In this document: piece by piece, positions 2,249 through 16,390 of the stretch
How the letters are laid out: each line of letters starts with the position of its first letter
Position numbering within the stretch: position 1 is the stretch's first letter
Source of the DNA: Phycisphaerales bacterium
GTDB lineage: Bacteria > Planctomycetota > Phycisphaerae > Phycisphaerales > UBA1924
Assembly: GCA_023382935.1 (NCBI GenBank)
Contig: JAHDXL010000005.1
Location: 53,717-117,716, forward strand
Direction of reading: 5' to 3'
DNA length: 64,000 bases
Program-made: the position numbers and the translations under genes
The notes under the pieces: model-generated
Databases searched by the model: none
What the model saw: the letters and a program-made list of their open reading frames with translations, nothing else
What the model was told of the DNA's origin: nothing

Positions 2249-2283
2249 GCCGGCAGTGGGCCACCGCCCGCTGCCGGTTTTTT
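2249..2283 (+). terminator. Intrinsic terminator after hcp
   Basis: CCGGCAG (2250-2256) pairs with CTGCCGG (2271-2277), with inner GGG/CCC pairing. Followed by TTTTTT (2278-2283). Confidence 0.6.
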
Positions 2284-2321
2284 CGCTCCAGATCGTGGGA
2301 AGCACGTGGGGAGGTGGTGTC

Positions 2322-3173
2322 ATGGGTGCGCCTGCCAGATCAGCCGAAGAAATGCTCCGCGCGGGGCGCGTGTCCGATGCGATGTCTGCACTGCGGGAGT
2401 CGATTCGTTCCGACCCGTCGGATCCGAAAAAGCGCCTGTTTCTCTTTCAACTCAACTGCGTGCAGGGAGAGTGGGACAAGGCGCTCAACCAACTCAACGT
2501 GGCGGCCGAACTCGACCCCGGGGTGCAATTGATGGCCCGCGTTGGTCGGGCGGCCATCCAGTGCGAAGTGTTCCGGCAGGAGGTTTTCGCCGGCAAGCGT
2601 TCGCCCCTGCTGCTTGGCGAGCCAGAGCCGTGGGTCGGGATGATGCTCCAGGCGATGCAACTGTCCGGGCAGGGCAGGCACGGGCCTGCGGCCGAGTTGC
2701 GCACCCAGGCGTTTGAGAAGGCTCAGGCCCTTCCGGGCACGCTGACGGTCTCGGAGGGGGAAGTCGGCACGCCGCACAAGTTTGAGTGGCTGGCCGACGC
2801 GGACGAGCGCCTAGGCCCGATGATCGAGGCGATCGTGGAAGGGAAATACTACTGGGTGCCGTTTTCGCACATCCGTGCGATCTATCTCGAGCCTCCCAGC
2901 GACCTGCGTGACCTGGTCTGGGCGCCGGCGACGTTCCGCTGGGCCAACGGCGGTGAGATGGTTGGGCTGATTCCCACCCGTTATCCCGGCTCTGAGCGTT
3001 CGCCGGACGGGGCGATTGCTCTGGCCCGCAAGACCGATTTCAACGAGGTGGCGTCTGACACGTTTGAGCCTCTGGGCCAGCGCATGTGGGCGACCGACAT
3101 GGGTGAATATCCTGTGCTCCAGACCAGGCGCATCGAGATCGATCATCCCGACGGACCTGTGACCAATGGCTGA
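2322..3173 (+). CDS. tagJ: T6SS accessory protein TagJ (ImpE/SciE family)
   Basis: TPR-like N-terminal half and an ImpE-type C-terminus (YYWVPFSHIRAIYLEPPSDLRDLVWAPA, IPTRYPGS). GGGAGG lies 7 nt before ATG 2322; the ORF track starts at 2256. The stop overlaps the tssE start. Confidence 0.75.
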   Translation: MGAPARSAEEMLRAGRVSDAMSALRESIRSDPSDPKKRLFLFQLNCVQGEWDKALNQLNVAAELDPGVQLMARVGRAAIQCEVFRQEVFAGKRSPLLLGEPEPWVGMMLQAMQLSGQGRHGPAAELRTQAFEKAQALPGTLTVSEGEVGTPHKFEWLADADERLGPMIEAIVEGKYYWVPFSHIRAIYLEPPSDLRDLVWAPATFRWANGGEMVGLIPTRYPGSERSPDGAIALARKTDFNEVASDTFEPLGQRMWATDMGEYPVLQTRRIEIDHPDGPVTNG

Positions 3174-3672: not shown

Positions 3673-5539
3673 ACGGCTGAAGCGCTATTACGAGCGTGAG
3701 TTGCGCCACGTGCGCGAGTCGGCCGGGGAGTTCGCCCGCGAGTTTCCCAAGATCGCGGCGCGCCTCAGTCTCGACGAGATGTCGTGCGCCGACCCCTACG
3801 TCGAGCGTCTGCTCGAGGGGTTTGCGTTTCTGTCGGCTCGTGTGCAACTTAAACTCGACGCCGAGTTTCCGCGCTTCACGCAGCACATGCTCGAGAGCGT
3901 CTATCCGCACTATCTGTGCCCCACGCCCTCGATGCTGGTTGCCCAGTTCAAGCCCGATCTGGAAGACAGCGGGCTGGCCAGTGGATTTGACGTGCCTCGT
4001 GGCACTGTCCTGCGCAGCAACATCGGCAAGGAAGATCAGACCGCCTGCGAATATCGCACTGCCCACGCGGTCAAACTCTTCCCGCTCGAACTCTTCGAGG
4101 CCCAGTATCACGACCGCGATCTGGCCAGCCTCGGGCTGCCGAACATTCCCGGCGTGCGGGCGGCCATCCGATTCCGTTTGCGCGCCACCGCCGGGCTTTC
4201 GCTGGCCGAGATTGCGCTGGACCGTCTGCCCATTTTCATCCGCGGGGTCGGCGACGTGGCGGTGCGCATCTACGAGCAGGTCTTTGCACACGGGCTTGGC
4301 GTGGTGGTGCGGCCAACCACCAAGCCGGCCAAGTGGCACCATCACATTCCGCAGAAGCGCGTGCGTCAACTGGGCTTTGAGCCCGAGGAGGCGCTGCTCC
4401 CGCCCGGCCCGCGCAGTTTCGACGGGTATCGCCACCTCCACGAATACTTCACCTTCCCCGAGCGATTCCTGGCGTTCGAGGTCGGCGGGCTGCGCGAGGC
4501 GATGCAGCGCGCCGACCAGACACAGATCGAACTGGTCATACTGCTCAAGCAACCCGACGTGGAACTGGAAAACGGCATTGACGCCGAGAACCTGCTGCTG
4601 CACTGCACACCGGCGATCAACCTGTTCGAGAAGCGGGCCGACCGCATCCACATTTCCGACAAGTTTCCCGAGTTTCAACTGGTGCCCGATCGCACACGTC
4701 CGCTCGATTACGAGGTCTACGACGTGCTCGACGTCACTGGCTTCGGCACCACGGCCGACGAGGAGACACGCTTCCGCCCGTTCTACGCCGCGACCGACTA
4801 TGACGAAGGCTCGCAGGCGGCTGGGGCCTACTACGCAACCAATCGCGTGCCTCGTGTGCTCTCGGCCAAGGAACGCCGCCTGGGGCGTCGCTCGCGGTAC
4901 ACGGGCAGCGAGGTCTACCTGTCGCTGGTCGATGCGCACAACGCGCCGTTCAAGTCGGACCTGAGGCAGATCGGCGCCACCACGCGCTGCACCAATCGCG
5001 ATCTGCCGCTGCGGATGCCGGTGGGGGTCGGCCGCACCGACTTCACGACCGAGGCCGGCGCCGCCGTCGAGTCGGTTCGTTGCGTTGCCGGCCCGACTCC
5101 GCCGCAGTCATCGGTGGCCGAAGGCGAGACCGCCTGGCGACTGATCAGCCACCTGTCGCTCAACTATCTCTCACTGGCCGACGAGGATGAAGTTCGCGGC
5201 GCCGGCGCGCTGCGCGAACTGCTCGCTCTTTACGGCGACCTGTCCAACTCGGCCATACGCAAGCAGATCGAGGGGGTGCGCAAGGTTGGCGCCCGCCCGG
5301 TGACGCGCCGCGTGCCGGTTCCCGGCCCCATCGCCTTCGCCCGCGGGCTGGAGGTCGCGGTGACGCTGGAGGACGCTGCGTTTCAGGGCTCGGGCCCGTT
5401 CCTGCTGGGCGCGGTGCTCGAACGCTTCTTTGCCAAGTACGTCTCGCTCAACTCGTTTGTCGAAACCTGTATCAACACCACGGAGCGTGGGGAGATCATG
5501 CGATGGCCGACGCGCATCGGTCTGAGACATACGCTCTGA
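3665..5539 (+). CDS. tssF: T6SS baseplate subunit TssF
   Basis: 624 aa. Canonical N-terminus MDERLKRYYERELRHVRESAGEFAREFPKIAARL. GTGGATGA overlap with the tssE stop. Confidence 0.93.
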   Translation: MDERLKRYYERELRHVRESAGEFAREFPKIAARLSLDEMSCADPYVERLLEGFAFLSARVQLKLDAEFPRFTQHMLESVYPHYLCPTPSMLVAQFKPDLEDSGLASGFDVPRGTVLRSNIGKEDQTACEYRTAHAVKLFPLELFEAQYHDRDLASLGLPNIPGVRAAIRFRLRATAGLSLAEIALDRLPIFIRGVGDVAVRIYEQVFAHGLGVVVRPTTKPAKWHHHIPQKRVRQLGFEPEEALLPPGPRSFDGYRHLHEYFTFPERFLAFEVGGLREAMQRADQTQIELVILLKQPDVELENGIDAENLLLHCTPAINLFEKRADRIHISDKFPEFQLVPDRTRPLDYEVYDVLDVTGFGTTADEETRFRPFYAATDYDEGSQAAGAYYATNRVPRVLSAKERRLGRRSRYTGSEVYLSLVDAHNAPFKSDLRQIGATTRCTNRDLPLRMPVGVGRTDFTTEAGAAVESVRCVAGPTPPQSSVAEGETAWRLISHLSLNYLSLADEDEVRGAGALRELLALYGDLSNSAIRKQIEGVRKVGARPVTRRVPVPGPIAFARGLEVAVTLEDAAFQGSGPFLLGAVLERFFAKYVSLNSFVETCINTTERGEIMRWPTRIGLRHTL

Positions 5540-6531
5540 TCCTGCGGCTGATGGAGAAGCCGTACGCCTTCGACTTCTTCCAGGCGGTGCGGCGGCTCGA
5601 CTGCGCGCGAACGGGCGGAGAGCCGATCGGCATCTCCACCCGCCTGAAGATGGACCCGGTGCGCTTCGCACAGAAGGTCAGCCTCGCCTTTGCGCCGTCC
5701 ACCATCGCCGGCGTCGACAAGCCGGTGGAAGGTTCCGCTCCGCGATTTGCCGTGAACTTCTTCGGGCTGCTCGGGCCAAACGGGCCCATGCCGCTGCACC
5801 TGACCGAGTACGTTCACGAGCGCGAGCACAACTACCACGATCGCACGCTGGCGCGGTTCCTTGATATCTTCCACCACCGGATGATCTCGCTGTTCTACCG
5901 CGCCTGGGCTGTCAACCAGCCCACCGCCAGTTTCGACCGGGCATTGCAGGATCCGCTCAGCGATCGGGTGGGCGCCTACGTGGGCTCGATGGCCGGGCTG
6001 GGTTCGCCCGCGCTGCGGCAGCGCGATCGCGTCAGCGATCTGGCCAAACTGCACTACATCGGGCGGCTGGCCTGCCAGACCAGGAACGCCGAGGGGCTTG
6101 AAGCGATCATCGCCGACTACTTCAAGGTGCCCGCGAGCATCATCGAGTTTGTCGGGCACTGGATGGACCTGCCCGAGGACAGCCGATGCCGTCTCGGGCA
6201 GTCGCGCCACACCGGGACGCTCGGTTCGACCACCGTGGTCGGTTCGTCGATCTGGGAAGTACAGCAGAAGTTCCGCATCCGCATCGGGCCGGTGGGCCTG
6301 CGGGCCTACGAGCGGTTCCTGCCGACCGGGCGCAGTTTCGGGCGTCTGGTCGATTGGGTTCGCAATTACGTGAGTTTCGAGTATCGTTGGGACGCCCAGT
6401 TGGTGCTCGATCGTCGCGAGGTGCCGCAGACGCGCCTCGGGCGGGCGGGACGACTGGGCTGGACGACCTGGCTGTGCACCCGGCCTCTGGAGCGTGATCC
6501 GGACGACCTGGTGCTCACGCCGCCGGAATAG
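5503..6531 (+). CDS. tssG: T6SS baseplate subunit TssG
   Basis: 342 aa. Contains the YAFDFFQAVRRLD motif typical of TssG. The start overlaps the tssF 3' end by 37 nt. Confidence 0.9.
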   Translation: MADAHRSETYALILRLMEKPYAFDFFQAVRRLDCARTGGEPIGISTRLKMDPVRFAQKVSLAFAPSTIAGVDKPVEGSAPRFAVNFFGLLGPNGPMPLHLTEYVHEREHNYHDRTLARFLDIFHHRMISLFYRAWAVNQPTASFDRALQDPLSDRVGAYVGSMAGLGSPALRQRDRVSDLAKLHYIGRLACQTRNAEGLEAIIADYFKVPASIIEFVGHWMDLPEDSRCRLGQSRHTGTLGSTTVVGSSIWEVQQKFRIRIGPVGLRAYERFLPTGRSFGRLVDWVRNYVSFEYRWDAQLVLDRREVPQTRLGRAGRLGWTTWLCTRPLERDPDDLVLTPPE

Positions 6532-6580
6532 TCTGTGCCGCGCCACGGCACGGTGTGATGGGAAAGCGGGAGGCATCGTC

Positions 6581-9331
6581 ATGGCTGAGATCAGTCTCAA
6601 GTCGCTGTTCGGGAAGATGAACAGTTTGTGCTACAAGAGCGCGGAGAGCGCCACCGTGTTCTGCAAGATGCGGGGCAACCCCCGCGTCGACGTGGTCCAC
6701 TTCATCCACCAGGTGCTGCAACTGCAGGACTCGGACCTGCACAAGATCATCCGCCACTTCCAACTCAATCCGGCCAGACTGGCCTCCGATCTGACGGCGA
6801 CGCTTGATTCCGTGCAGCGGGGCGCGTCTTCGATCGCTGGATTCTCCAGCGACCTTGAGGAGGCCGTCGAGCGGGCCTGGGTCTACGGCAGCCTGATGTT
6901 CAACGAGCGTTCGATCCGCTCGGGACATCTGGTGGTTGGCATGCTCAAGACCAAGAGCCTCTCGCGTGCGCTCATCGGCATCAGTGAAGAGTTCGCCAAG
7001 ATCCGCGTCGACGAACTGTGCGATTCCTACGAGAAGATCCTCGGCGATTCGCCCGAGTCCAAACTTGCGGCCCGCGAGAGTGGGGGAGTGGGCGGCGGCG
7101 CCGTTCCAGGTGAGGCGTCCGGCGCCATGGCCCCGGCGGAAATGGGCAAGGAAGAGGCTCTCAAACGCTTCTGCCGCGACATGACCGAGGAAGCACGCTC
7201 AGGCAAGATCGACCCGATCGTCGGTCGCGACGAGGAAACCCGTCAGGTCATCGACATTCTCATGCGCCGGCGTCAGAACAACCCGGTGCTGGTCGGCGAA
7301 GCCGGCGTCGGCAAGACCGCCGTGGCCGAGGGATTCGCCCACAAGATCGTCGAGGGCGATGTACCTCCGCCGTTGCAGGGCGTGCGCCTGCTGGAACTCG
7401 ACGTCTCGGCTCTTCAGGCCGGGGCCAGCATGAAAGGTGAGTTCGAGCAGCGCCTCAAGCAGGTCATCGAAGAGGTGCAGGCCTCGACGAGGCCGACAAT
7501 CCTTTTCATTGACGAAGTTCACCGCCTGATTGGTGCCGGCGGGCAGGCGGGTACGGGTGATGCGGCCCAGTTGCTCAAGCCGGCGCTGGCACGCGGCCTG
7601 CTGCGCACCGTCGCCGCGACGACCTGGGCCGAGTACAAGAAGCACATCGAGAAGGACCCCGCGCTGACGCGGCGATTCCAGACGGTGCTGGTCGATGAGC
7701 CGGGCGAAGAGCGTGCCATCCTCATGATGCGCAAGGTGGCCGGCATCTTTGAGAAGCATCACAAGGTGCAGATTCTCGACGAGGCGATCGAGGCCGCCGT
7801 GCGCCTCAGCCACCGGTACATCCCCGCCCGCCAGTTGCCGGACAAGGCGGTGAGTCTGCTGGATACGGCCTCGGCGCGCGTGGCCATCGGGCAGCACGCC
7901 GTGCCGGCTGAGGTGGACGACACGCGCAAACGCATCCAGGCGCTCGAGACCGAGTCGCAGATCCTCGCCCGCGAGCAGGCGGTGGGCTTTCACCACGAGA
8001 AGCGCATGCAGGAAGTGGCCGAGCATATCCGGGCCGAGCAGGAGCGCCTCGCGTCGCTCGAATCCAACTGGCAGAGGGAAAAGGAACTGGTCGAGCGTGT
8101 GCTGGGGATTCGTGCCAGACTGCGTGGTCCGACCGGCGCCGAGCACGTCGAGGGCACCGGCTCCAAGGCCGAGGCCAGGGCCGGGGCGCAGGTTGCAGCC
8201 GAAGCCGCCGCTGCCGGCAAGTCGACGCTGAGCGATGCCGAACGGGCCGCGCTGGTGGCCGAACTCGACCAGGTAAAGAAGGAACTGGCCGAGTTGCAGG
8301 GCGACAAGCCGCTGATCATACCTGACTGCGACGCCAACGCCGTTGCGGCCGTTGTCGCCGACTGGACTGGCATCCCCGTCGGGCGCATGGTCAAGAACGA
8401 GATCCAGGCGATCCTGCAACTGGCCGATACGCTCAACAAGCGCGTCATCGGCCAGCGCCACGGGCTGGAGGCCATCGCCAAGCGCATCCAGACCAACCGC
8501 GCCAGCCTCGACAATCCCAACAAGCCGATCGGCGTGTTCATGCTCGCCGGGCCCTCGGGCGTCGGAAAGACCGAAACCGCTCTCGCCCTGGCCGAGGCGC
8601 TCTACGGCGGCGAGCAGAACGTCATCACCATCAACATGTCTGAGTTCCAGGAAGCGCACACCGTCTCGACGCTCAAGGGCGCCCCTCCCGGGTACGTGGG
8701 ATACGGAGAGGGTGGTGTGCTGACCGAGGCCGTCCGGCGCAAGCCCTACTCGGTCGTTCTCCTTGACGAGGTCGAGAAGGCCCACCCCGACGTTCACGAG
8801 ATTTTCTTCCAGGTCTTCGATAAGGGGAACATGGAGGACGGCGAGGGTCGGCACATCGACTTCAAGAACACGGTCATTCTCCTCACCACCAATGTGGGCA
8901 CCGAACTGATTATGAACATGTGTAAGGATCCCGACCTGATGCCTTCGGTGGAGGGGCTTCAGAAGTCCTTGCGCGAGCCGATGCTCAAGGTTTTCCCGGC
9001 CGCGCTGCTGGGGCGCATCACGGTCATCCCGTATTTCCCGCTCGACGACAAGATGCTCAAGGAAATCGCCCGCCTGCAGTTGGGACGCATCCAGAAGCGC
9101 ATCAGCCAGAACCACGGGGCCCGTTTCGACTATGGCGAAGACGTGCTCGACCTGATCGTCAGCCGGTGCACCGAGATCGAGTCCGGCGGCCGCATGATCG
9201 ATGCCATCCTGACTCAGACCATGCTTCCGGAGATTTCGACCGCCTTCCTGAACCGGATGATGGAGGGTCGAACCATCGAGCGGGTGCAGGTGCATGTGGG
9301 AGACAACGAGTTCCGCTATGCCTTTGAGTGA
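6581..9331 (+). CDS. clpV: T6SS AAA+ ATPase ClpV (TssH)
   Basis: ClpV-type N-domain ([27 protein letters not shown]) and two AAA+ modules (Walker A GEAGVGKT and GPSGVGKT). Start taken at ATG 6581 after GGGAGG; the ORF track start 6494 lies inside tssG. Confidence 0.93.
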
Positions 9332-9396: not shown

Positions 9397-10218
9397 ATGT
9401 CGCTGCGACGAACACCCGGGGTCATCTGCCAATGCCAGTCGGGGACTGGGATTGATGGTGGGACCAACGCCCTGACGCTGTCGGGGCTGCCGGGTCCGAC
9501 CACCGACCTGATGAGCGCTCAGGCTGCGGCGAGGGCGATTTACGCCTCGGTGTCCAACCAGAGCCCGGTGTGCATGGATTGGGACGCCATCCGGGGAGCC
9601 GGGCAGTTGGCCCGGGCCGCGACCGCGTCCATGATTGAGTCGAACCTGCAACTATCGCTCGAGCAGGCGGTCTACGGCTTTGCCGTGCGCCAGGTGGCCG
9701 AGCAGTACCTCGATGTTCGGGAAACTGGCGGCGACAACCGGGGCGAAGAGGTCGAGGCGATGCTCGAGGGTGCCGGCGGCTCGGCGGGCATGTCGTGGTG
9801 CGCAGCCTTCGTCTCGCACTGCCACGTCGAGGCCGCCGCCCTGCTGTGCGCCGGCACGACCTGCCCGCGCACGCTCAGCGCGGTGATGATGGTCTTTCAC
9901 GGGCGCACTGCGGGCAACCTCACGTTCAGCAAGGCAAGCGTCCTGTCGGGCGCCATCATGCCCTTTGCCGGCGACGTGTTCTCGATGGTGCACCAGGGCC
10001 CGGTCAGTTCGCTCGACCCGGGCCGGCCTGCGCAGTTTCGCCGCGGGCATACCGGTATCGTCATCAGTTACAACGCGGCGACGCAAACGCTCACCACCAT
10101 CGAAGGCAACACCAATGAGGGTGGCGGACGCGAAGGCAATGGCGTGTACCTTCGCACCGACCGCATGCGCAGCGCCCGCCTGTGGGGCTTCATGCGTCCA
10201 CGCATCGTCTGGTTCTAG
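9397..10218 (+). CDS. CHAP/NlpC-P60-superfamily peptidoglycan amidase-like protein, no signal peptide
   Basis: Catalytic-type motifs in the usual order: MSWCAAFVSHC (Cys), RRGHTGIVISY (His), TTIEGNTNEG. Resembles CHAP / TIGR02594-like hydrolases. Start uncertain (ATG 9397; alternatives 9511 and 9631). Stop lies 11 nt before vgrG. Confidence 0.7.
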   Translation: MSLRRTPGVICQCQSGTGIDGGTNALTLSGLPGPTTDLMSAQAAARAIYASVSNQSPVCMDWDAIRGAGQLARAATASMIESNLQLSLEQAVYGFAVRQVAEQYLDVRETGGDNRGEEVEAMLEGAGGSAGMSWCAAFVSHCHVEAAALLCAGTTCPRTLSAVMMVFHGRTAGNLTFSKASVLSGAIMPFAGDVFSMVHQGPVSSLDPGRPAQFRRGHTGIVISYNAATQTLTTIEGNTNEGGGREGNGVYLRTDRMRSARLWGFMRPRIVWF

Positions 10219-10229
10219 GAGACACACCC

Positions 10230-12350
10230 ATGCCCGCTGGACTGCGGACTCAGGCAAACCGGACCATCGCCATCAACACACCCCTCGGTGCGGACAAGGT
10301 GGCCATTCAGTCCATCCGCGGGCAGGAGGAACTCGGGCGCCTGTTTCAGTACGAACTCGAACTGCTCAGCGAAGACGACACGCTCGTCTTCGAGGAACTG
10401 CTCGGGCAGAACGTCACCGTCCGTGTCGGCATTGGCTCGGGACCGGACGTGCGCTACATCAACGGATACATCAGCCGAATCTCTCAGCATGAGTATCGTG
10501 CCGGGCTGGCGGTCTATCGTGCCACGCTTGTTCCGTGGCTGTGGTTCCTCACCCGCCAGTCCGACTGTCGCATCTACCAGGAGATGACCTTCCCGGACAT
10601 CGTCAAGTCGGTGTGCAAGGAACTTGGTTTCACCGACATCAAGGATCAACTCGCGAGCACCTACCAGTCTCGAGACTTCTGCGTGCAGTACCGCGAGACC
10701 ACGTTCAATTTCGTCTCGCGTCTGATGGAGCAGGAGGGCATCTACTACTACTTCGCCCACGAGAACGGCAAACACGAACTCGTCCTGTGCGACGCGCCCG
10801 ACGCCCACGCCGCTCTGGCCACCGGGCTTGAAATCCCTTTCTATCCGCCCGACGGAAGCAAACGCAACGAGCAACACATTCGCGGCTGGACCGTGCAGAA
10901 GCAGATCCAGTCGCTCAAGTACGAACTGGCCGATTTCGACTTTGAGAAGCCCAACGCACCGGTCGTGAGCAACTCGCAGCAGCAGCGCGACCACGCGACC
11001 GGCCCGTGGGAGGCCATGTACGACTACCCCGGCGAGTACGTCACCGGGGAGGAGGCTCAGCACTTTTCGACCATCCGGCTCCAGGAGTTGCAGGCCCGAT
11101 ATGAGCAGATCAGCGGACAGGCCGATCATCGTGGCATTGTCGTCGGTGGCCGCTTCAAACTGACGCTGCCCGCCAAGGGCATGCGCCCCGACCAGGAGCG
11201 CGAGTACGTCGTGACGTCGACGAGTCTCCAGGCCTCGCAGGATTTGTTCGGCTCGGGCGGCGACGCGGGTAGCGAAGACCTCTTCTCGATCGCCTTCACG
11301 GTCATTCCCGCGACCGAGCACTTCCGCCCGGCTCGCACCACGCCCAAGCCCCTGATCCAGGGTCCGCAGACCGCCATCGTCGCAGGAAAGGACGGTGAGG
11401 AAATCTGGACCGACGAGTATGGGCGCGTCAAGGTGCAGTTTCACTGGGACCGCTACTCGGCCGGCGATGAGAAGAGTTCCTGCTGGTGCCGCGTGAGCCA
11501 GAACTGGGCGGGCAAGCGCTGGGGCGCCATGTTCATGCCGCGCATCGGGCAGGAGGTCATCGTCGAGTTTCTCGAGGGAGACCCCGATCGCCCAATCATC
11601 ACGGGGCGCGTCTACAACGGGCAGAACATGCCGCCCTACAAGCCCACCGAGATGGGAACCGTGAGCACCATCAAGAGCAACACCTCCAAAGGGGGGGCGG
11701 GCTTCAATGAGATCCGCTTCGAGGACAAGAAGGACGAGGAGCAGGTCTTCATCCACGCCCAGAAGAACATGGATGTCCGCGTGCTCAACGACCGCTTCGA
11801 GACCGTCGTGCACGATCGACACCTCGTCGTCGAGAACGACAAGTTCGAACACGTCAAGCACGACCGGCACCTGGTGGTGGACAACGATCGATTTGAACAC
11901 ATCAAGCGCGACGTGAACATCACGGTGGACGGCAAGCATGCCGAGGCCGTCTCCGGTTCCTATTCGCAGAAGGTCACCGGCGACGTGGCCGAGGTGTACG
12001 AGGCCAACCAGTCCACTGAGATCACCGACGACCTCTACATCAAGGCGAAAAACATCTGCTTCGAGGCCGTGGAGAACATCACCATCAAGGTCGGGAAGAC
12101 CAGCATCGCTCTGGAGACGACCGGGGTGGGGCTTGCAACCAAGGGCGACATCAAGGCCGAGGCGACCAAGAACATTGAACTCAAGGCCACCACCGAGTTC
12201 AAGGCCGAGGGTACCGCCGGCGTCGACGTGAAGGGTGCCAAGGTCGACGTGAAGGCCGACGGGATGGCAACCTTCGAGGGCACCGGTCCCACCACGGTCA
12301 AGAGCGCCGCGATCCTCACCGTGCAGGGCTCGCTGGTCAAGATCAACTGA
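10230..12350 (+). CDS. vgrG: T6SS spike protein VgrG (TssI)
   Basis: 706 aa. Canonical start (AINTPLGADKVAIQSIRGQEELGRLFQYELELLSED), gp27/gp5 core (RVSQNWAGKRWGAMFMPRIGQEVIVEFLEGDPDRPIITGRVYN) and C-terminal beta-helix repeats. AGGAG RBS before ATG 10230. No C-terminal effector extension. Confidence 0.95.
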   Translation: MPAGLRTQANRTIAINTPLGADKVAIQSIRGQEELGRLFQYELELLSEDDTLVFEELLGQNVTVRVGIGSGPDVRYINGYISRISQHEYRAGLAVYRATLVPWLWFLTRQSDCRIYQEMTFPDIVKSVCKELGFTDIKDQLASTYQSRDFCVQYRETTFNFVSRLMEQEGIYYYFAHENGKHELVLCDAPDAHAALATGLEIPFYPPDGSKRNEQHIRGWTVQKQIQSLKYELADFDFEKPNAPVVSNSQQQRDHATGPWEAMYDYPGEYVTGEEAQHFSTIRLQELQARYEQISGQADHRGIVVGGRFKLTLPAKGMRPDQEREYVVTSTSLQASQDLFGSGGDAGSEDLFSIAFTVIPATEHFRPARTTPKPLIQGPQTAIVAGKDGEEIWTDEYGRVKVQFHWDRYSAGDEKSSCWCRVSQNWAGKRWGAMFMPRIGQEVIVEFLEGDPDRPIITGRVYNGQNMPPYKPTEMGTVSTIKSNTSKGGAGFNEIRFEDKKDEEQVFIHAQKNMDVRVLNDRFETVVHDRHLVVENDKFEHVKHDRHLVVDNDRFEHIKRDVNITVDGKHAEAVSGSYSQKVTGDVAEVYEANQSTEITDDLYIKAKNICFEAVENITIKVGKTSIALETTGVGLATKGDIKAEATKNIELKATTEFKAEGTAGVDVKGAKVDVKADGMATFEGTGPTTVKSAAILTVQGSLVKIN

Positions 12351-12359
12351 GGTGTCTGC

Positions 12360-12794
12360 ATGAACCCCAAAGACGGAAAATCCTGTTCGCTTGTCGAACC
12401 GGGTGAAGCGACGGAAGCGACCGACGCCGACACCGCCGACCCCGGAAAGGTCTCGCAGATCAAGGCCCGCGAGCGCGAGAACAAGGAAGGAAAATACGGC
12501 AAGGAGACTGTCGAGCCCTTCACGCCGGCCAACGAGCCCTACGACCCCGTCGAGACCAGTTGGATCGAGATCGAACTGGTTGACGAGTCCGACAAGCCGG
12601 TCGCCGGCGCGCAATACGAGGTCACGCTGTCCGACGGGCGCGTGGCATCGGGCATGCTCAACGGCGAAGGCTGGGCACGGCTCGAGGGCATCCCGCCGGG
12701 CACCTGCAGGATCTGCTTCCCGAAACTCGACGCCGAGGCGTGGGAGTTCATCGAGTCGGTTGACGAGAAGTATCCCGCCATTCAGGTTTCCTAG
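12360..12794 (+). CDS. Hypothetical protein: acidic disordered N-terminus plus carboxypeptidase-regulatory/transthyretin-like beta-sandwich
   Basis: Starts 9 nt after the vgrG stop. GC3-rich. C-terminal segment WIEIELVDESDKPVAGAQYEVTLSDGRVASGMLNGEGWARLEGIPPGTCRICF fits the CarboxypepD_reg-like pattern and is paralogous to a segment of the next ORF. Confidence 0.6.
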   Translation: MNPKDGKSCSLVEPGEATEATDADTADPGKVSQIKARERENKEGKYGKETVEPFTPANEPYDPVETSWIEIELVDESDKPVAGAQYEVTLSDGRVASGMLNGEGWARLEGIPPGTCRICFPKLDAEAWEFIESVDEKYPAIQVS

Positions 12795-12818
12795 GTCTGC
12801 ACACAGGACGATCCGAAA

Positions 12819-13433
12819 ATGCCCATCGATCACGTGGTCAGACATGGCGAATGCCTCCTGTCGATCAGCGACAGGTACGGCTTCTTCCCCGAGACGCTCT
12901 GGAACCACGCCGACAACCGCCAACTCAAGCAGCAGCGTGAGGATCCCAACGTCCTCCAGGCCGGCGATGTCGTTCATATTCCCGATCTGAACCGCAAGGA
13001 AGAAAGCAAACCTGACAAGCAGCGTCATCGCTTTCGCCGCAAGGGCGTGCCCGGCAAACTCAGGATCCGCCTTCTGGACAACGGCCAGCCGCGCGCCCAT
13101 GTGCCCTATCGCCTCGTCATCGACGGCCACATCATCGAGGCCCAGACCGACGGCGACGGCTTTGTCGAGCAGGATCTGCCCGCCAGCGCCAGCCAGGGTG
13201 AACTGATCGTTGACCGCGACGACGGCGGCACCGATCACTACCACTTCAACTTCGGCACGGTCGATCCGATCGACACCGAGGCCGGGCAGCGCCATCGCCT
13301 GCACGACCTGGGCTACGACACCACCGAGCACCCGGAAGCCATCCGCGCCTTCCAGCGCGATCACGATCTTGAGCCCAGCGGCCAGGCGGATGATCAGACC
13401 CTGTCCAAACTGCAGGAGATCTTCGGGCAATGA
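12819..13433 (+). CDS. LysM + beta-sandwich + PG_binding_1-like domain protein, no signal peptide
   Basis: N-terminal LysM-like segment (HVVRHGECLLSISDRYGF...LQAGDVVHIPD). Middle segment KLRIRLLDNGQPRAHVPYRLVIDGHIIEAQTDGDGFVEQDLP. C-terminal LGYDTTEHPEAIRAFQRDHDLEPSGQADDQTLSKL resembles a peptidoglycan-binding helical repeat. Confidence 0.75.
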   Translation: MPIDHVVRHGECLLSISDRYGFFPETLWNHADNRQLKQQREDPNVLQAGDVVHIPDLNRKEESKPDKQRHRFRRKGVPGKLRIRLLDNGQPRAHVPYRLVIDGHIIEAQTDGDGFVEQDLPASASQGELIVDRDDGGTDHYHFNFGTVDPIDTEAGQRHRLHDLGYDTTEHPEAIRAFQRDHDLEPSGQADDQTLSKLQEIFGQ

Positions 13434-13954
13434 GCGGAGTTGTCTCTTTCATCTCGCGACTCGTACAGTCCGCCACGGCGCACAACACGATCAATCTGCC
13501 GACGGTGCCGGTGACGTTCCAGCGATCGCCGGGCGTTCCGACGGCCAATGAGCGCGGCATCTCCGACATGGACTTCCGTGTCACCTCCCTGGGGTTTGTG
13601 CTTCAGACCGGTCGCACGCCGGCCAACGGCCGCATCGATGTCCGACTCGTCGGCGGGCGTGCCACGCTCCAGTTGCTGCACAACGGCAACCCCGTGGCCG
13701 AGTACGACATTCGTGTGCACACCGCCGCAGTCGAGCCCGACTCCACCATCAACGGCATCCAGCGTCGCCTGCGCATGCTCGGGTACCAACTCGGGCACGA
13801 GGGCGCCGGGAAGGACGGCATCACCAACACCATCACCAAACTCACCGATCGCGCCATCCAGGACTTTCAGATCGACCAGAAGGTCGCCTTCGATGGCAAG
13901 GTCGACGCGGGCACCACGACGAAGATCAACGACGCCGTGGCCGCGCTGCCCTGA
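13430..13954 (+). CDS. Hypothetical protein with C-terminal PG_binding_1-like domain, no signal peptide
   Basis: ATGA overlap with the previous ORF. C-terminus INGIQRRLRMLGYQLGHEGAGKDGITNTITKLTDRAIQDFQIDQKVAFDGKVDAGTTTKI fits the PG_binding_1 pattern. Confidence 0.65.
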   Translation: MSGVVSFISRLVQSATAHNTINLPTVPVTFQRSPGVPTANERGISDMDFRVTSLGFVLQTGRTPANGRIDVRLVGGRATLQLLHNGNPVAEYDIRVHTAAVEPDSTINGIQRRLRMLGYQLGHEGAGKDGITNTITKLTDRAIQDFQIDQKVAFDGKVDAGTTTKINDAVAALP

Positions 13955-13981
13955 TCGACGACACTGCGGAAAGACTCTCCC

Positions 13982-15154
13982 ATGATCCGGATCAACGTCG
14001 CACAGAACAAGCAGGTCATCGTGCCTCTGCGTTTCCGCCGCGCCAGCGATGCCGACGCCGAACGCGAGTTTCCGGAGATCGACGATCGCGGCTACGAAAT
14101 GGGCACCCGCGCGGGCACCTGGGGGCAGTCCACCGCCCGCGGGCCCATGGTCGGGCTGACCACCGGCTTCACCGTCACGCTGCGCGTCGTGCGCGAGGAC
14201 ATCGACGCCAATGCCCCCCTGTTCGCCAGGAGCACCGATACGGCCGTGGTCAAGATCATCGAACCGGCCAACGGCGGACCCATCCCGGCTTCGGGCGACT
14301 TCAAGATCAAGGGCGTCGCCGACTTTGCCAATCGTCCCGTTTCGGTGCAACTGCGGCTGGGCGGCATTGATGGGCCGGTGCTCGGCGAGATCGAGCCTCA
14401 CATCTTCACGCCCCGGAAGATCAAACTGGTCGTGCACAACATGCGCATCGACGACGCCACGGGTCAGGGTACCCGCGCCGCTCTCCCGATCGAAGACATG
14501 GCCGCCCGCGTCCGCGCCATCTGGTGGCCCGCGGGCCTCGACATGGATTACGACCCCGTCGCCCGCCCCGACAAGAACAACGACAGCACGCTCGCCAAGA
14601 AGGACGAGGTCAAACTCTTCGGCGGCGGCTTCGGCGAGGTGCCCGGGCTGCTCCGCCAGCACAGCGTGCTCGACGACAAGATCCACCTGTTCGTCATCAA
14701 CGCCTTCACGCCCAATCCGGCCACGCCCGACCTGACCACCGTTGGGCTGGGCGTCACGCCTGATCTTGCCACGCAACTCAACTGCCCCCCGGGCATCTTC
14801 GTCACCGCGAAGGACGTCGTGGGCGACCAGGCGGAAATTGAACTCCGCTCGCGCACCATCGCACACGAGATCGGGCACTTCCTCACGCTTGAGCACGTGC
14901 ACCGCAAGAACGCGACCGAGGCGGCCGGCGACACCTACTCGCGCCGCCATCTCATGTATCCGCTCTCGAACATCGTCGAGGAGGTCACGCCCCGCACGCT
15001 CACCAGCGAGCATCGCTTCAACGACAACGGGTATGGCGAGCAGGTGCGGGGCTGGATGCTCACGCTCAAGAACCTCGATCATCACGACACCGACGATGAA
15101 GTCGCCAAGGCGCGCAAGCGTGCCCAGGCCGTGCAGGGAGGCAAGTGGAGTTGA
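13982..15154 (+). CDS. Metzincin (matrixin-like) zinc metalloprotease, no signal peptide; candidate T6SS effector
   Basis: HEIGHFLTLEH (HExxHxxxxxH, three His ligands) followed about 20 aa later by a Met-turn HLMYP (compare ALMYP of MMPs). About 280 aa of N-terminal Ig-like and catalytic-domain sequence. Same operon as vgrG. Confidence 0.75.
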   Translation: MIRINVAQNKQVIVPLRFRRASDADAEREFPEIDDRGYEMGTRAGTWGQSTARGPMVGLTTGFTVTLRVVREDIDANAPLFARSTDTAVVKIIEPANGGPIPASGDFKIKGVADFANRPVSVQLRLGGIDGPVLGEIEPHIFTPRKIKLVVHNMRIDDATGQGTRAALPIEDMAARVRAIWWPAGLDMDYDPVARPDKNNDSTLAKKDEVKLFGGGFGEVPGLLRQHSVLDDKIHLFVINAFTPNPATPDLTTVGLGVTPDLATQLNCPPGIFVTAKDVVGDQAEIELRSRTIAHEIGHFLTLEHVHRKNATEAAGDTYSRRHLMYPLSNIVEEVTPRTLTSEHRFNDNGYGEQVRGWMLTLKNLDHHDTDDEVAKARKRAQAVQGGKWS

Positions 15155-15226
15155 CGCGACCGTTGGCCTCCGGCGGAAGGCCCCGGCCATCTGCGAGTTG
15201 TCCGACCCGCCCTTGCGGAGATACCG

Positions 15227-16003
15227 ATGGACACCAGGGAACTCACCACGCTCATCCGCGCCGGGCACGACGATCGCGCCATCGACGTCGCCCGCGCCTC
15301 CGGCCCGCCCGCCTTCAACCAGGTTGAGGCGCTGCTGGCCGACCCATCGCCGCAGGTTCGTGCCATCACGTTGCGCGTCCTCGACGCGGCCGATCCGCGG
15401 CGGGCTCATCCCTTGGCCCTCAAGGCCCTCTCCGACCCGAGCGATGAAGTCCGGACGTTCGCCGTCGCGGTGCTCCGCCCCAATCCCCCCTCCGGCCACG
15501 CCTCCGAGTTGCTCGCCGCCTACAACACCTCCCATGACCCCGCACTGAGGGCCGAGATCGCGCTGCTGGCCGGGCGCGTCCAGCCACCCGAAGCGATCGA
15601 CACCTGGCGCGCCGTCTGGGCCCGCGAGGACGACCGCTACGCCAAGGCCGACGTGTGCAAGGCCCTGGCGCGCATGGGCGACCAGCCCGCCCGCGACGCC
15701 TACGTCGCCGACATGAAGCGACAGCGCGGCCGCCCCGTCTTCGATCTCATCCGCGGCACGGCCTACTTCCAGAACACCTGGGTGGTCCCCGCGCTGGCCC
15801 AGATGCTCGATCGCAAGGACGTGGCCCTGCACCTGGCCCCGGACTTCCCGGACACGCACCCCTTCCGCGTCTGCGACGTGGCGCTGGAGGCCATCCTCAC
15901 ACTCACCGGGGAGAAGGTCGAGTTCCAGGTGCCGCGCCCGACCCAGTACGCCGAGTCCGAGATCGCCACGGTCCGGGGCATCGCGCGCAGGTACGGGCCC
16001 TGA
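15227..16003 (+). CDS. HEAT-repeat protein; candidate cognate immunity/partner of the preceding protease
   Basis: Repeated HEAT/PBS-lyase-like units ([42 protein letters not shown]). GCGGAG RBS. Last gene before the C-tract. Confidence 0.75.
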
Positions 16004-16104
16004 CCCCCGGCCCCCGGACCCCCGGCCCCCCGGCCCCCCGGCCCCCCGGACCCCCGGCCCCCCGGACCCCGGCCCCCCGGACCCCGGACCCCCCCCGGAC
16101 CCCC
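16004..16104. repeat. C-tract microsatellite: 13 runs of C4-C8 separated by GG or GGA
   Basis: Read directly. Starts on the first base after the TGA of the HEAT-repeat gene. The complementary strand carries 13 G-tracts. Confidence 0.9.
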
Positions 16105-16205
16105 GTAATTCCGGCTTGTCCCCGTCGGCCTGCACGCCTCGGCCGGACTCCGCTTTTTTTGGATGCACGCGCGCGCCGTGCCGCCCGTTCGGCCGCCCCA
16201 GCGCC

Positions 16206-16390
16206 CGTGCACGCCCTCCGGACAGCCGTGCCCGCCCGCCGTGCACGGTTTCACACCCTCTGGCAACCCGTGCACGCCCGCCGTGCACGGTTTCACACCC
16301 TCTGGCAACCCGTGCACGCCCGCCGTGCACGGCTTTCCGCCCGCCGGCAACCCGTGCACGCCCGCCGTGCACGGCTTTCCGCCCGCCGGG
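16206..16390. repeat. Tandem 42-bp repeat array carrying eight copies of the palindrome CGTGCACG
   Basis: Identical units at 16240-16281 and 16282-16323, a variant unit at 16324-16365 and a truncated fourth. Palindrome copies start at 16206, 16240, 16269, 16282, 16311, 16324, 16353 and 16366. Intergenic, upstream of glnN. Confidence 0.85.

Follow-up and report, generated by a model that had tools for sequence, protein, structure and literature searches.

Periplasmic zinc metallopeptidase toxins of type VI secretion systems (T6SS) have been described in Pseudomonas aeruginosa, where the C-terminal part of VgrG2b is paired with the periplasmic immunity protein PA0261, and in Acinetobacter baylyi, where Tpe1 is paired with Tpi1; in some species the immunity protein of a Tpe-Tpi pair is a lipoprotein (PMC6899460). 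The VgrG2b peptidase is a gluzincin of the thermolysin-like kind, its third zinc ligand being a Glu (PMC6899460). Transthyretin-like (TTR) domains at the end of the spike are specific loading sites for effectors encoded downstream (PMC7043769), and the C-terminal TTR domains of VgrG and PAAR proteins are known to load Tle1, PldA and PldB (PMC7043769, PMC7376260, PMC6899460). A 2023 catalogue lists stand-alone LysM and PG_binding_1 genes of vgrG loci as modules of effector recruitment and discrimination (Wang et al.; PMC10673891), and a LysM protein of a vgrG locus was shown to bridge VgrG and the toxin and to be required for their binding (PMC10673891). The described Imm-HEAT proteins, which give immunity in polymorphic toxin systems, have Ntox34 or REase toxins as partners (PMC3482391). 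Here we describe five open reading frames, ORF1 to ORF5, that directly follow a vgrG spike gene in a 64,000-nt stretch of a Phycisphaerales metagenome-assembled genome (MAG; contig JAHDXL010000005.1, positions 53,717 to 117,716), called the window below. The region is probably a T6SS cargo island whose toxin is a zinc metalloprotease acting in the periplasm, and the most likely form of this island is a spike-loaded effector-immunity module.

The gene order resembles that of the VgrG2b C-terminal/PA0261 and Tpe1-Tpi1 systems: spike, TTR domain, zinc metallopeptidase and exported immunity protein (PMC6899460). Unlike in VgrG2b, the modules are separate genes in the window, and two extra peptidoglycan-binding proteins are encoded. 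The vgrG (tssI) gene (10182-12350; start at 10230 and 706 aa in independent gene calls) ends with a TGA at 12348-12350 and is followed, on the same + strand, by ORF1 (a TTR protein), ORF2 and ORF3 (the peptidoglycan-binding proteins), ORF4 (the protease) and ORF5 (a HEAT-repeat protein). The sequence carries the locus tags KJZ65_09615-09635. A first reading of the window, made from the sequence alone, had described five same-strand ORFs behind vgrG with spacers of 9, 24, -4 (an ATGA overlap), 27 and 72 nt, and the ORF listing matches this description exactly. The same gene structure is present in four independent short-read assemblies. This sequence-only reading had also taken the genes for a single transcription unit that ends at a C-tract. 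A scan of the stretch found no promoter-like site inside the vgrG-ORF5 unit and two terminator-like matches, fewer than in shuffles (mean 4.6), which is compatible with one operon but is no proof of it. The end of the unit was placed correctly, and the C-tract is in fact a C-rich tandem array, (CCCGGACC)n with n ~13 (15998-16105, no strand assigned), which overlaps the ORF5 stop and closes the unit.

The distribution of the cassette was studied in loci obtained from scans of genome and metagenome collections and from exact-protein look-ups, a locus being counted if it contained a full-length ORF4 homologue. There are 38 such distinct loci (numbered with the prefix L below), from at least seven phylum- or class-level lineages. 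The hosts belong to the Planctomycetota, Acidobacteriota, Thermodesulfobacteriota, Zixibacteria, Ignavibacteria, Myxococcota, Gammaproteobacteria (Alteromonadaceae, Paraglaciecola, Colwellia) and Betaproteobacteria (Burkholderia, Cupriavidus). ORF3 is directly 5' of ORF4 or fused to it in 35 of the 36 assessable loci, ORF5 is directly 3' of ORF4 in 34 of 35, and ORF2 is found 5' of ORF3 in 25 loci. A VgrG with an ORF1-type TTR domain, either free or fused, adjoins the cassette in 15 loci. A PAAR-TTR fusion stands directly before ORF3-ORF4-ORF5 in five more, all of which are without ORF2. One of these two spike arrangements is therefore present in 20 of the 30 loci with enough flank; three others have a VgrG or VgrG fragment with no recognisable ORF1, and eight contigs are too short to tell. 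The full five-gene order after vgrG recurs in a Colwellia MAG (L047). Because the same genes occur in the same order in dozens of unrelated genomes, the arrangement is not due to chance. The proposal of the sequence-only reading that these genes are a vgrG-linked cargo, adaptor and immunity set is borne out by this gene-neighbourhood comparison, in which they travel with VgrG or PAAR across phyla.

A PAAR gene is adjacent to the cassette in 17 loci. The window itself has none, as the sequence-only reading had said: no match was found anywhere in its 64 kb by tblastn with four PAAR queries, and ORF1-5 have no Pfam or NCBIfam match to PAAR, DUF4123, DUF1795 or DUF2169. This absence does not extend to the module, since a PAAR gene lies directly 3' of ORF5 in the relatives L045, L046 and L049, at the place taken in the window by the tandem array.

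ORF4 (13982-15154; 390 aa) is the presumed toxin. Its zinc-binding motif, HEIGHFLTLEH, spans residues 295-305 (14864-14896), and a Met-turn, HLMYP, follows at residues 323-327, with Met325 at 14954-14956. In 30 ORF4 homologues the three zinc-binding His (H295, H299 and H305), the catalytic Glu (E296) and M325 are invariant, giving the pattern HExxHxxxxxH plus Met-turn, and invariance or near-invariance extends to R322 and L324. The canonical Gly of HExxHxxGxxH is Thr in the window protein; this position is not conserved in the ORF4 family alignment. The AlphaFold2 model (predicted local distance difference test score, pLDDT, 88.6; predicted template modelling score 0.90) has two domains, an immunoglobulin-like (Ig-like) beta-sandwich at aa 16-157 and an alpha/beta catalytic domain at aa 170-390. 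The order of elements in the latter, helix 170-184, four strands, helix 283-300 with the HExxH and helix 373-385, fits the metzincin fold with its five-stranded sheet, active-site helix and C-terminal helix, but a Foldseek search with this model gave sandwich matches only. The Ig-like domain has invariant motifs of its own, DDRG and REDID. Family profiles were needed for the structural comparisons because searches of the Protein Data Bank (PDB) with single sequences gave nothing for ORF1 or ORF2 and borderline ADAMTS matches only for ORF4. The ORF4 family profile matches adamalysins (1wni, 8.6e-8), ADAMTS-4/5, ulilysin and mirolysin, and the alignment with the adamalysins covers approximately 140 residues, the whole upper subdomain. 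By its conserved residues ORF4 is a metzincin whose active site is intact, and it is closest to the adamalysin/M12B group, and neither to matrixins nor to the Tpe gluzincins. The sequence-only reading had called the protease matrixin-style. This assignment to M10 was rejected, the Pfam Peptidase_M10 score being 13.9 bits against a cut-off of 24, with better scores for M43 and M12B and no PRCGxPD-like motif.

The family is large. An exhaustive hidden Markov model search of 1.84 billion representatives retrieved 194 clusters (50% identity) with a threshold of E<=1e-30, and the number rises to 335 with E<=1e-10. Of the top 150, approximately 10 are N-terminally extended forms of 480-650 aa. Burkholderia homologues carry the NCBI name 'M12 family metallo-peptidase', and other public annotation is 'hypothetical protein'. 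In the literature we found no paper describing the cassette or the ORF4 family, and no relevant one joining type VI secretion and a metzincin. ORF4 shares with the adamalysins/reprolysins (M12B) and with ulilysin (M43) the three-His motif and the Met-turn. It differs from these metzincins in being made in the cytoplasm without a signal peptide, in having its own N-terminal Ig-like domain and in being encoded in T6SS loci. The difference from the VgrG2b and Tpe peptidases is in the active site, where the third ligand is His305 and is accompanied by a Met-turn. The VgrG2b structure 6h56 is not among the 60 best of the 102 matches of the ORF4 profile at E<=10, the weakest of those 60 having E 0.84. 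By analogy with VgrG2b and the Tpe proteins ORF4 would act in the periplasm, and it may work like a Tpe although it is not one.

ORF1 (12360-12794; 144 aa) is composed of a charged linker (aa 1-65) and a TTR beta-sandwich (approximately aa 66-125), and is acidic (30 D+E versus 15 K+R). When searched alone against Pfam, it gives weak CarboxypepD_reg and prealbumin-like matches. A profile of 19 homologous domains (A3), among which weak CarboxypepD_reg matches are seen in nine and prealbumin-like matches in seven, matches the TTR domain of VgrG1 of enteroaggregative Escherichia coli (EAEC; 6sjl_A 783-834, E 4.7e-5) and the TTR part of the VgrG2b crystal structure (6h56_A 21-48, E 1.1e-4). The vgrG product of the window ends with ...VKIN before its TGA, which is the point where orthologues run on into an ORF1-like extension. 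The ORF1-type linker and TTR are fused to the C-terminus of VgrG in L001, L005, L012 and L031 and to the C-terminus of PAAR in L011, L019, L020, L032 and L035; L012 has a second copy, of this PAAR type. In the fusion of L031 the VgrG end '...VNIN' continues directly into '...GSPCSLVSP...ADKADPGEMAQIKAEQ...', which can be aligned with the ORF1 N-terminus. Stand-alone versions of 120-150 aa form approximately 40 clusters, several of which are labelled 'VgrG' in IMG, and L048 has a VgrG-ORF1 pair with no cargo behind it. The profile matches, the fusions, the stand-alone versions and L048 lead us to regard ORF1 as a detached VgrG C-terminal extension of the effector-loading type, that is, by its homology, a TTR-type docking domain that elsewhere ends VgrG or PAAR. 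In the window it is a separate ORF, while the covalent attachment is present in orthologues. It is homologous to the loading domains of EAEC VgrG1 (for Tle1) and P. aeruginosa VgrG4b and VgrG5 (for PldA and PldB) (PMC7043769; 6sjl), and by this likeness it is predicted to bind and deliver the cognate effector. ORF1 differs from them in that its 144 aa form a separate protein, which includes a conserved charged linker, and the cargo would be a protease complex, not a lipase.

The TGA of vgrG and the ATG of ORF1 (12348-12362) are in the same frame and 9 nt apart. Read-through of the TGA, if true, would recreate the VgrG-TTR fusion of other genomes. The two frames agree also in L003, L015 and the L002 group, and four of six independent junctions are in frame (P ~0.1). 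Programmed read-through is not supported, however, as TGA-TAA double stops occur in L002, L009 and L025 and the genes are out of frame in L008 and L036.

ORF2 (12819-13433; 204 aa) and ORF3 (13430-13954; 174 aa) both match PG_binding_1 in Pfam, at 4e-6 and 1e-5 respectively. In the AlphaFold2 model of ORF2 (53-sequence alignment, pLDDT 88.7) residues 1-55 form a LysM-like beta-alpha-alpha-beta module, residues 79-144 a beta-sandwich and residues 154-202 the three-helix bundle of PG_binding_1. The window ORF2 has no Pfam LysM match at E<=1. Its homologues carry PF01476 and/or PF01471, and several close ones are named 'LysM peptidoglycan-binding domain-containing protein'. Foldseek searches of PDB and BFVD with the model gave generic beta-sandwich matches only and no analogue of the whole protein. 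The central sandwich is homologous to the ORF1 TTR domain (hhalign 95%, E 3.9e-8). ORF3 has the sandwich and the PG_binding_1 domain without the LysM, and its profile (A4) aligns with that of ORF2 (A2) across both at 99.5% and E 1e-22. PG_binding_1 is matched in 18 of 23 members of the ORF3 family, and the ORF3 profile retrieves the peptidoglycan-binding domains of enzymes that hydrolyse the wall, namely a Zn amidase fusion, SleB, phiKZ gp144 and a Zn DD-peptidase. To judge from these alignments, ORF2 and ORF3 are paralogues built on one TTR-like sandwich and a genuine peptidoglycan-binding three-helix domain, with an extra LysM in ORF2.

In L016, L018, L019 and L020 ORF3 is joined to the N-terminal end of ORF4, and because of these four lineages it is considered a detachable N-terminal module of ORF4. 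Single ORF3-ORF4 polypeptides are found in Burkholderia lata (648 aa), Cupriavidus (659 aa), a Zixibacteria MAG (553 aa, PG_binding_1 at 104-154) and an Ignavibacteria MAG (568 aa). ORF2 is a candidate VgrG-effector bridging protein or co-effector. It is likened by its domains and gene position to the stand-alone LysM gene of Ketobacter alkanivorans, where the order is VgrG-LysM(Kalk_10460)-Kalk_10455-Kalk_10450 and the LysM gene separates vgrG from a toxin-immunity pair (PMC10673891). Another published example is LysM-NlpC/P60 of Burkholderia sp. RPE67 (PMC10673891). As in the published modules, LysM and PG_binding_1 domains occur here both free and fused to toxins and are tied to wall-active toxins, with M23 and C39-like neighbours. 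Unlike in those modules, ORF2 joins LysM, TTR-like and PG_binding_1 domains in one protein and has a LysM-less paralogue. The 2023 study links no metzincin to its LysM and PG_binding_1 classes and reports PG_binding_1 in some Gammaproteobacteria only (PMC10673891).

ORF2-like genes are also found before other cargo. In L001 (region 5064-8862) three ORF2-like copies precede a Peptidase_C39-like protein of 313 aa, which is then followed by a PAAR gene, a 368-aa protein of no known kind, and the ORF3-5 set. In L012 (13325-20595) an ORF2-like gene stands before the gene of a DUF4123 adaptor, which is accompanied by a TTR-containing protein. L012 also encodes a protein of 837 aa with an internal PF01476 match, and a 617-aa protein of L005 has a LysM-like N-terminus by inspection, with no Pfam match. 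In L043 (5405-8791; Phycisphaerales UBA1924), which has the same genomic position as the window, two extra genes lie between ORF1 and ORF2. One encodes 273 aa, weakly similar to ORF2 by tblastn and without a Pfam match, and the other 843 aa with a Peptidase_M23 and a faint Tlde1 domain. From this pair it is concluded that the island accumulates several wall-directed effectors.

ORF5 (15227-16003; 258 aa) is made of PBS-lyase-type HEAT repeats (HEAT_2, 9e-13), and HEAT_2 is matched in 20 of 22 family members. Membership in TIGR02270 was rejected (25.6 bits versus a cut-off of 206.8). A signal-peptide-like N-terminus is present in 32 of 35 ORF5-family proteins, 16 of them with a clear lipobox. 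The nearest relatives begin with lipoprotein signals, MRRVFAAAACVLMVFAGC in L043 and MRYIATVAIAAAVVLAGC in L045, and approximately 45 residues in they carry the same 'MDT..L..LIR.G.DDRAI' that opens the window protein. In the window the signal and linker of approximately 45 codons are replaced by the 72-nt spacer (15155-15226), and ORF5 starts at the internal conserved Met. A missed signal peptide was considered and rejected, as there is no upstream in-frame start and no hydrophobic stretch in any frame, and the four independent assemblies agree; the loss of the signal is real. The ORF5 proteins of L035 and L014 are also without a signal. The statement of the sequence-only reading that no signal peptide is present thus holds for the window, where none of ORF1-ORF5 has a hydrophobic N-terminus, but not for the module, in which close relatives have a lipoprotein ORF5.

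From their N-termini and position, ORF5 orthologues are recognised as exported HEAT-repeat lipoproteins encoded right behind the protease. ORF5 is presumed to be the periplasmic immunity protein and is predicted to neutralise the toxin. In Burkholderia lata R-18110 (L016, 6059-10955) vgrG is directly followed by the 648-aa ORF3-ORF4 fusion (WP_174979547.1), which is followed by three tandem secreted ORF5-like paralogues of 324-345 aa and then by a PAAR-like match. These three copies look like a poly-immunity pattern. ORF5 resembles the Imm-HEAT proteins in being a HEAT-repeat protein encoded directly behind a toxin gene. It differs from them in that its partner is a metzincin and that it is normally a lipoprotein, and from PA0261 in being a HEAT-repeat protein whose window copy is without an export signal. 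The exported immunity protein, the peptidoglycan-binding partners and the neighbouring wall-active effectors point to the target periplasm as the site of action.

We propose the following mechanism, of which the loading and all later steps are inferred. In the cytoplasm of the producer ORF3 would bind ORF4, as the fusions suggest, and ORF2, by its LysM and/or TTR domain, would together with the ORF1 TTR link the ORF3-ORF4 complex to the tip of the VgrG trimer. ORF1 and ORF2 are placed as connectors to VgrG because of the VgrG and PAAR fusions, the gene position and the LysM precedent (PMC10673891). On sheath contraction the loaded spike would enter the periplasm of a neighbouring diderm cell, where the PG_binding_1 and LysM domains may hold the protease on the sacculus. 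ORF4 would then cleave an envelope protein or, less likely, peptidoglycan peptides. In the periplasm of sister cells ORF5 would bind and block the protease.

Several points weigh against this interpretation of the locus. Secretion and toxicity of the proteins are predicted, as are the substrate and all contacts between them. M12-type metzincins are protein endopeptidases and are not known as peptidoglycan hydrolases, which makes the role of the peptidoglycan-binding partners uncertain. In seven loci whose upstream flank is 8 kb or longer, VgrG, PAAR and TTR genes are all absent from the vicinity. A Foldseek search of PDB with the full-length two-domain ORF4 model retrieved no metzincins; matches to the N-terminal sandwich dominate the result (template modelling score <=0.18). 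Finally, the window ORF5 is without an export signal. Removal of the signal peptide of the PA0261 immunity protein abolishes protection (PMC6899460) and, by this analogy, the window ORF5 should not protect in the periplasm; its lack of a signal is unexplained. The window strain thus misses two usual elements, the PAAR gene after ORF5 and the ORF5 export signal.

Other roles can be considered for the genes around the protease. ORF2 and ORF3 could be secreted co-effector subunits that act only in the target cell, as a tether for the protease or as peptidoglycan-binding toxins, and only the ORF1 TTR would do the loading. The PG_binding_1 domains of both belong to the kind found in cell-wall hydrolases, ORF3 must travel with the effector where it is covalently part of it (four lineages), and the PAAR-TTR lineages that have no ORF2 still keep ORF3-ORF4-ORF5. 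We nevertheless think this unlikely. In the described case the vgrG-linked LysM protein is needed for the binding of VgrG and effector (PMC10673891), ORF2-like genes precede unrelated effectors as would be expected of adaptors, and both ORF2 and ORF3 share the TTR-like domain with the spike extension. The roles of co-effector and adaptor are moreover not mutually exclusive.

The constant place of ORF3 before ORF4 or at its N-terminus (the 35 of 36 loci above) would also suit a latency or chaperone module which, acting in trans and in some lineages in cis, keeps the metzincin inactive in the producer cytoplasm. The pro-domains of matrix metalloproteinases (MMPs) have the PG_binding_1 fold, and Pfam PF01471 covers them. 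Such a module would explain how the producer tolerates ORF4 despite an ORF5 that is not periplasmic. The ORF3 profile, however, finds the peptidoglycan-binding domains of bacterial and phage wall hydrolases but, at E<=1, not one MMP pro-domain; a cysteine-switch-like motif is missing from ORF3, which contains not a single Cys, and in the fusions the Ig-like domain lies between the peptidoglycan-binding and the catalytic domain, so that an MMP-like pro-domain is quite improbable. It is more improbable still that the genes are housekeeping accessories of the TagX/MltE type, which remodel the wall so that the T6SS can assemble and fire through the producer's own peptidoglycan. Several peptidoglycan-binding domains and a peptidase do adjoin the T6SS core genes, and a CHAP-like ORF stands between clpV and vgrG. 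There is, however, no Sec or Tat route to the producer periplasm, since ORF1-4 of the window have no export signal and none is seen in the listed N-termini of ORF1-3 orthologues. The ORF1 domain is fused to VgrG and PAAR, ORF3-4 stand directly behind PAAR-TTR proteins, and orphan copies of the cassette and multiplied ORF5 copies are typical of toxin-immunity islands.

A further idea within the effector-immunity reading concerns the tip of the spike in strains that have no PAAR gene. Since one TTR-like sandwich is common to ORF1, ORF2 and ORF3, whose genes follow one another behind that of a trimeric spike, the three proteins might form a hetero-trimeric cap, one per VgrG protomer. The cap would break the three-fold symmetry, allow just one metzincin to be loaded and substitute for the PAAR tip. 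We regard this as a long shot. In the same line, sub-stoichiometric VgrG-TTR fusions that nucleate the cap could arise if the in-frame TGA of vgrG were leaky and read through.

The sequence-only reading had found no known adaptor among the genes and could not assign the combination to a described effector architecture. Both statements go too far. ORF1 is the TTR loading domain of VgrG and PAAR, LysM and PG_binding_1 genes of vgrG loci were catalogued in 2023 (PMC10673891), and both metallopeptidase toxins with periplasmic immunity (Tpe/VgrG2b) and HEAT-repeat immunity (PMC3482391) were already known. Every part is thus of a described kind, and no current concept is overturned. The novelty lies in how the parts are combined, in the family of metzincin effectors, in a TTR protein that stands free, in the paralogous ORF2 and ORF3 and in an immunity variant without its signal. 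The module defines a T6SS effector-immunity family of an Ig-metzincin and a HEAT lipoprotein, which reaches phyla with essentially unstudied T6SS cargo, namely Planctomycetota, Acidobacteriota, Zixibacteria and Ignavibacteria. The natural fusions are direct genomic evidence for contacts of the TTR domain with VgrG or PAAR and of the peptidoglycan-binding module with the protease. Homologues are present in the culturable Burkholderia lata, B. puraquae, Cupriavidus sp. and Paraglaciecola arctica, so that the loading logic (TTR + LysM + peptidoglycan-binding domain) and the substrate of a T6SS metzincin can be tested.

The neighbourhood of the cassette is that of a T6SS cluster. The vgrG product matches TIGR03361 at 9e-189 in addition to Phage_GPD, Phage_base_V and Gp5_trimer_C (Pfam/NCBIfam search), and TssC (29-1534), TssF, TssG and ClpV/TssH, all far over the NCBIfam cut-offs, are encoded 5' of it. 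On the other side, the (CCCGGACC)n array is followed by a second array (16210-16389), a 42-nt unit repeated approximately four times that contains the palindrome GTGCAC, and then by a type III glutamine synthetase gene. An Rfam scan of this repeat region returned chance matches to miRNA models only. The short-read contigs of the same organism stop exactly at the tandem arrays. In L043 the position of the arrays is a plain spacer ahead of the glutamine synthetase III gene.

Two further ORFs of the cluster were observed. A 273-aa ORF (9397-10218, + strand) lies between clpV and vgrG and overlaps both. It has weak CHAP/TIGR02594-like similarity (7.5e-5, below the Pfam cut-off), no immunity-like gene adjoins it, and a counterpart of 276 aa is found at the same place in the Phycisphaerales UBA1924 locus L043. 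Either an amidase-type effector or an auxiliary hydrolase of the wall may be encoded here. A 305-aa ORF (2256-3173, + strand) between tssC and tssF has no NCBIfam match, and a homologue adjoins tssC in L015. Judged by its position, it may be a TagJ/ImpE-like accessory protein.

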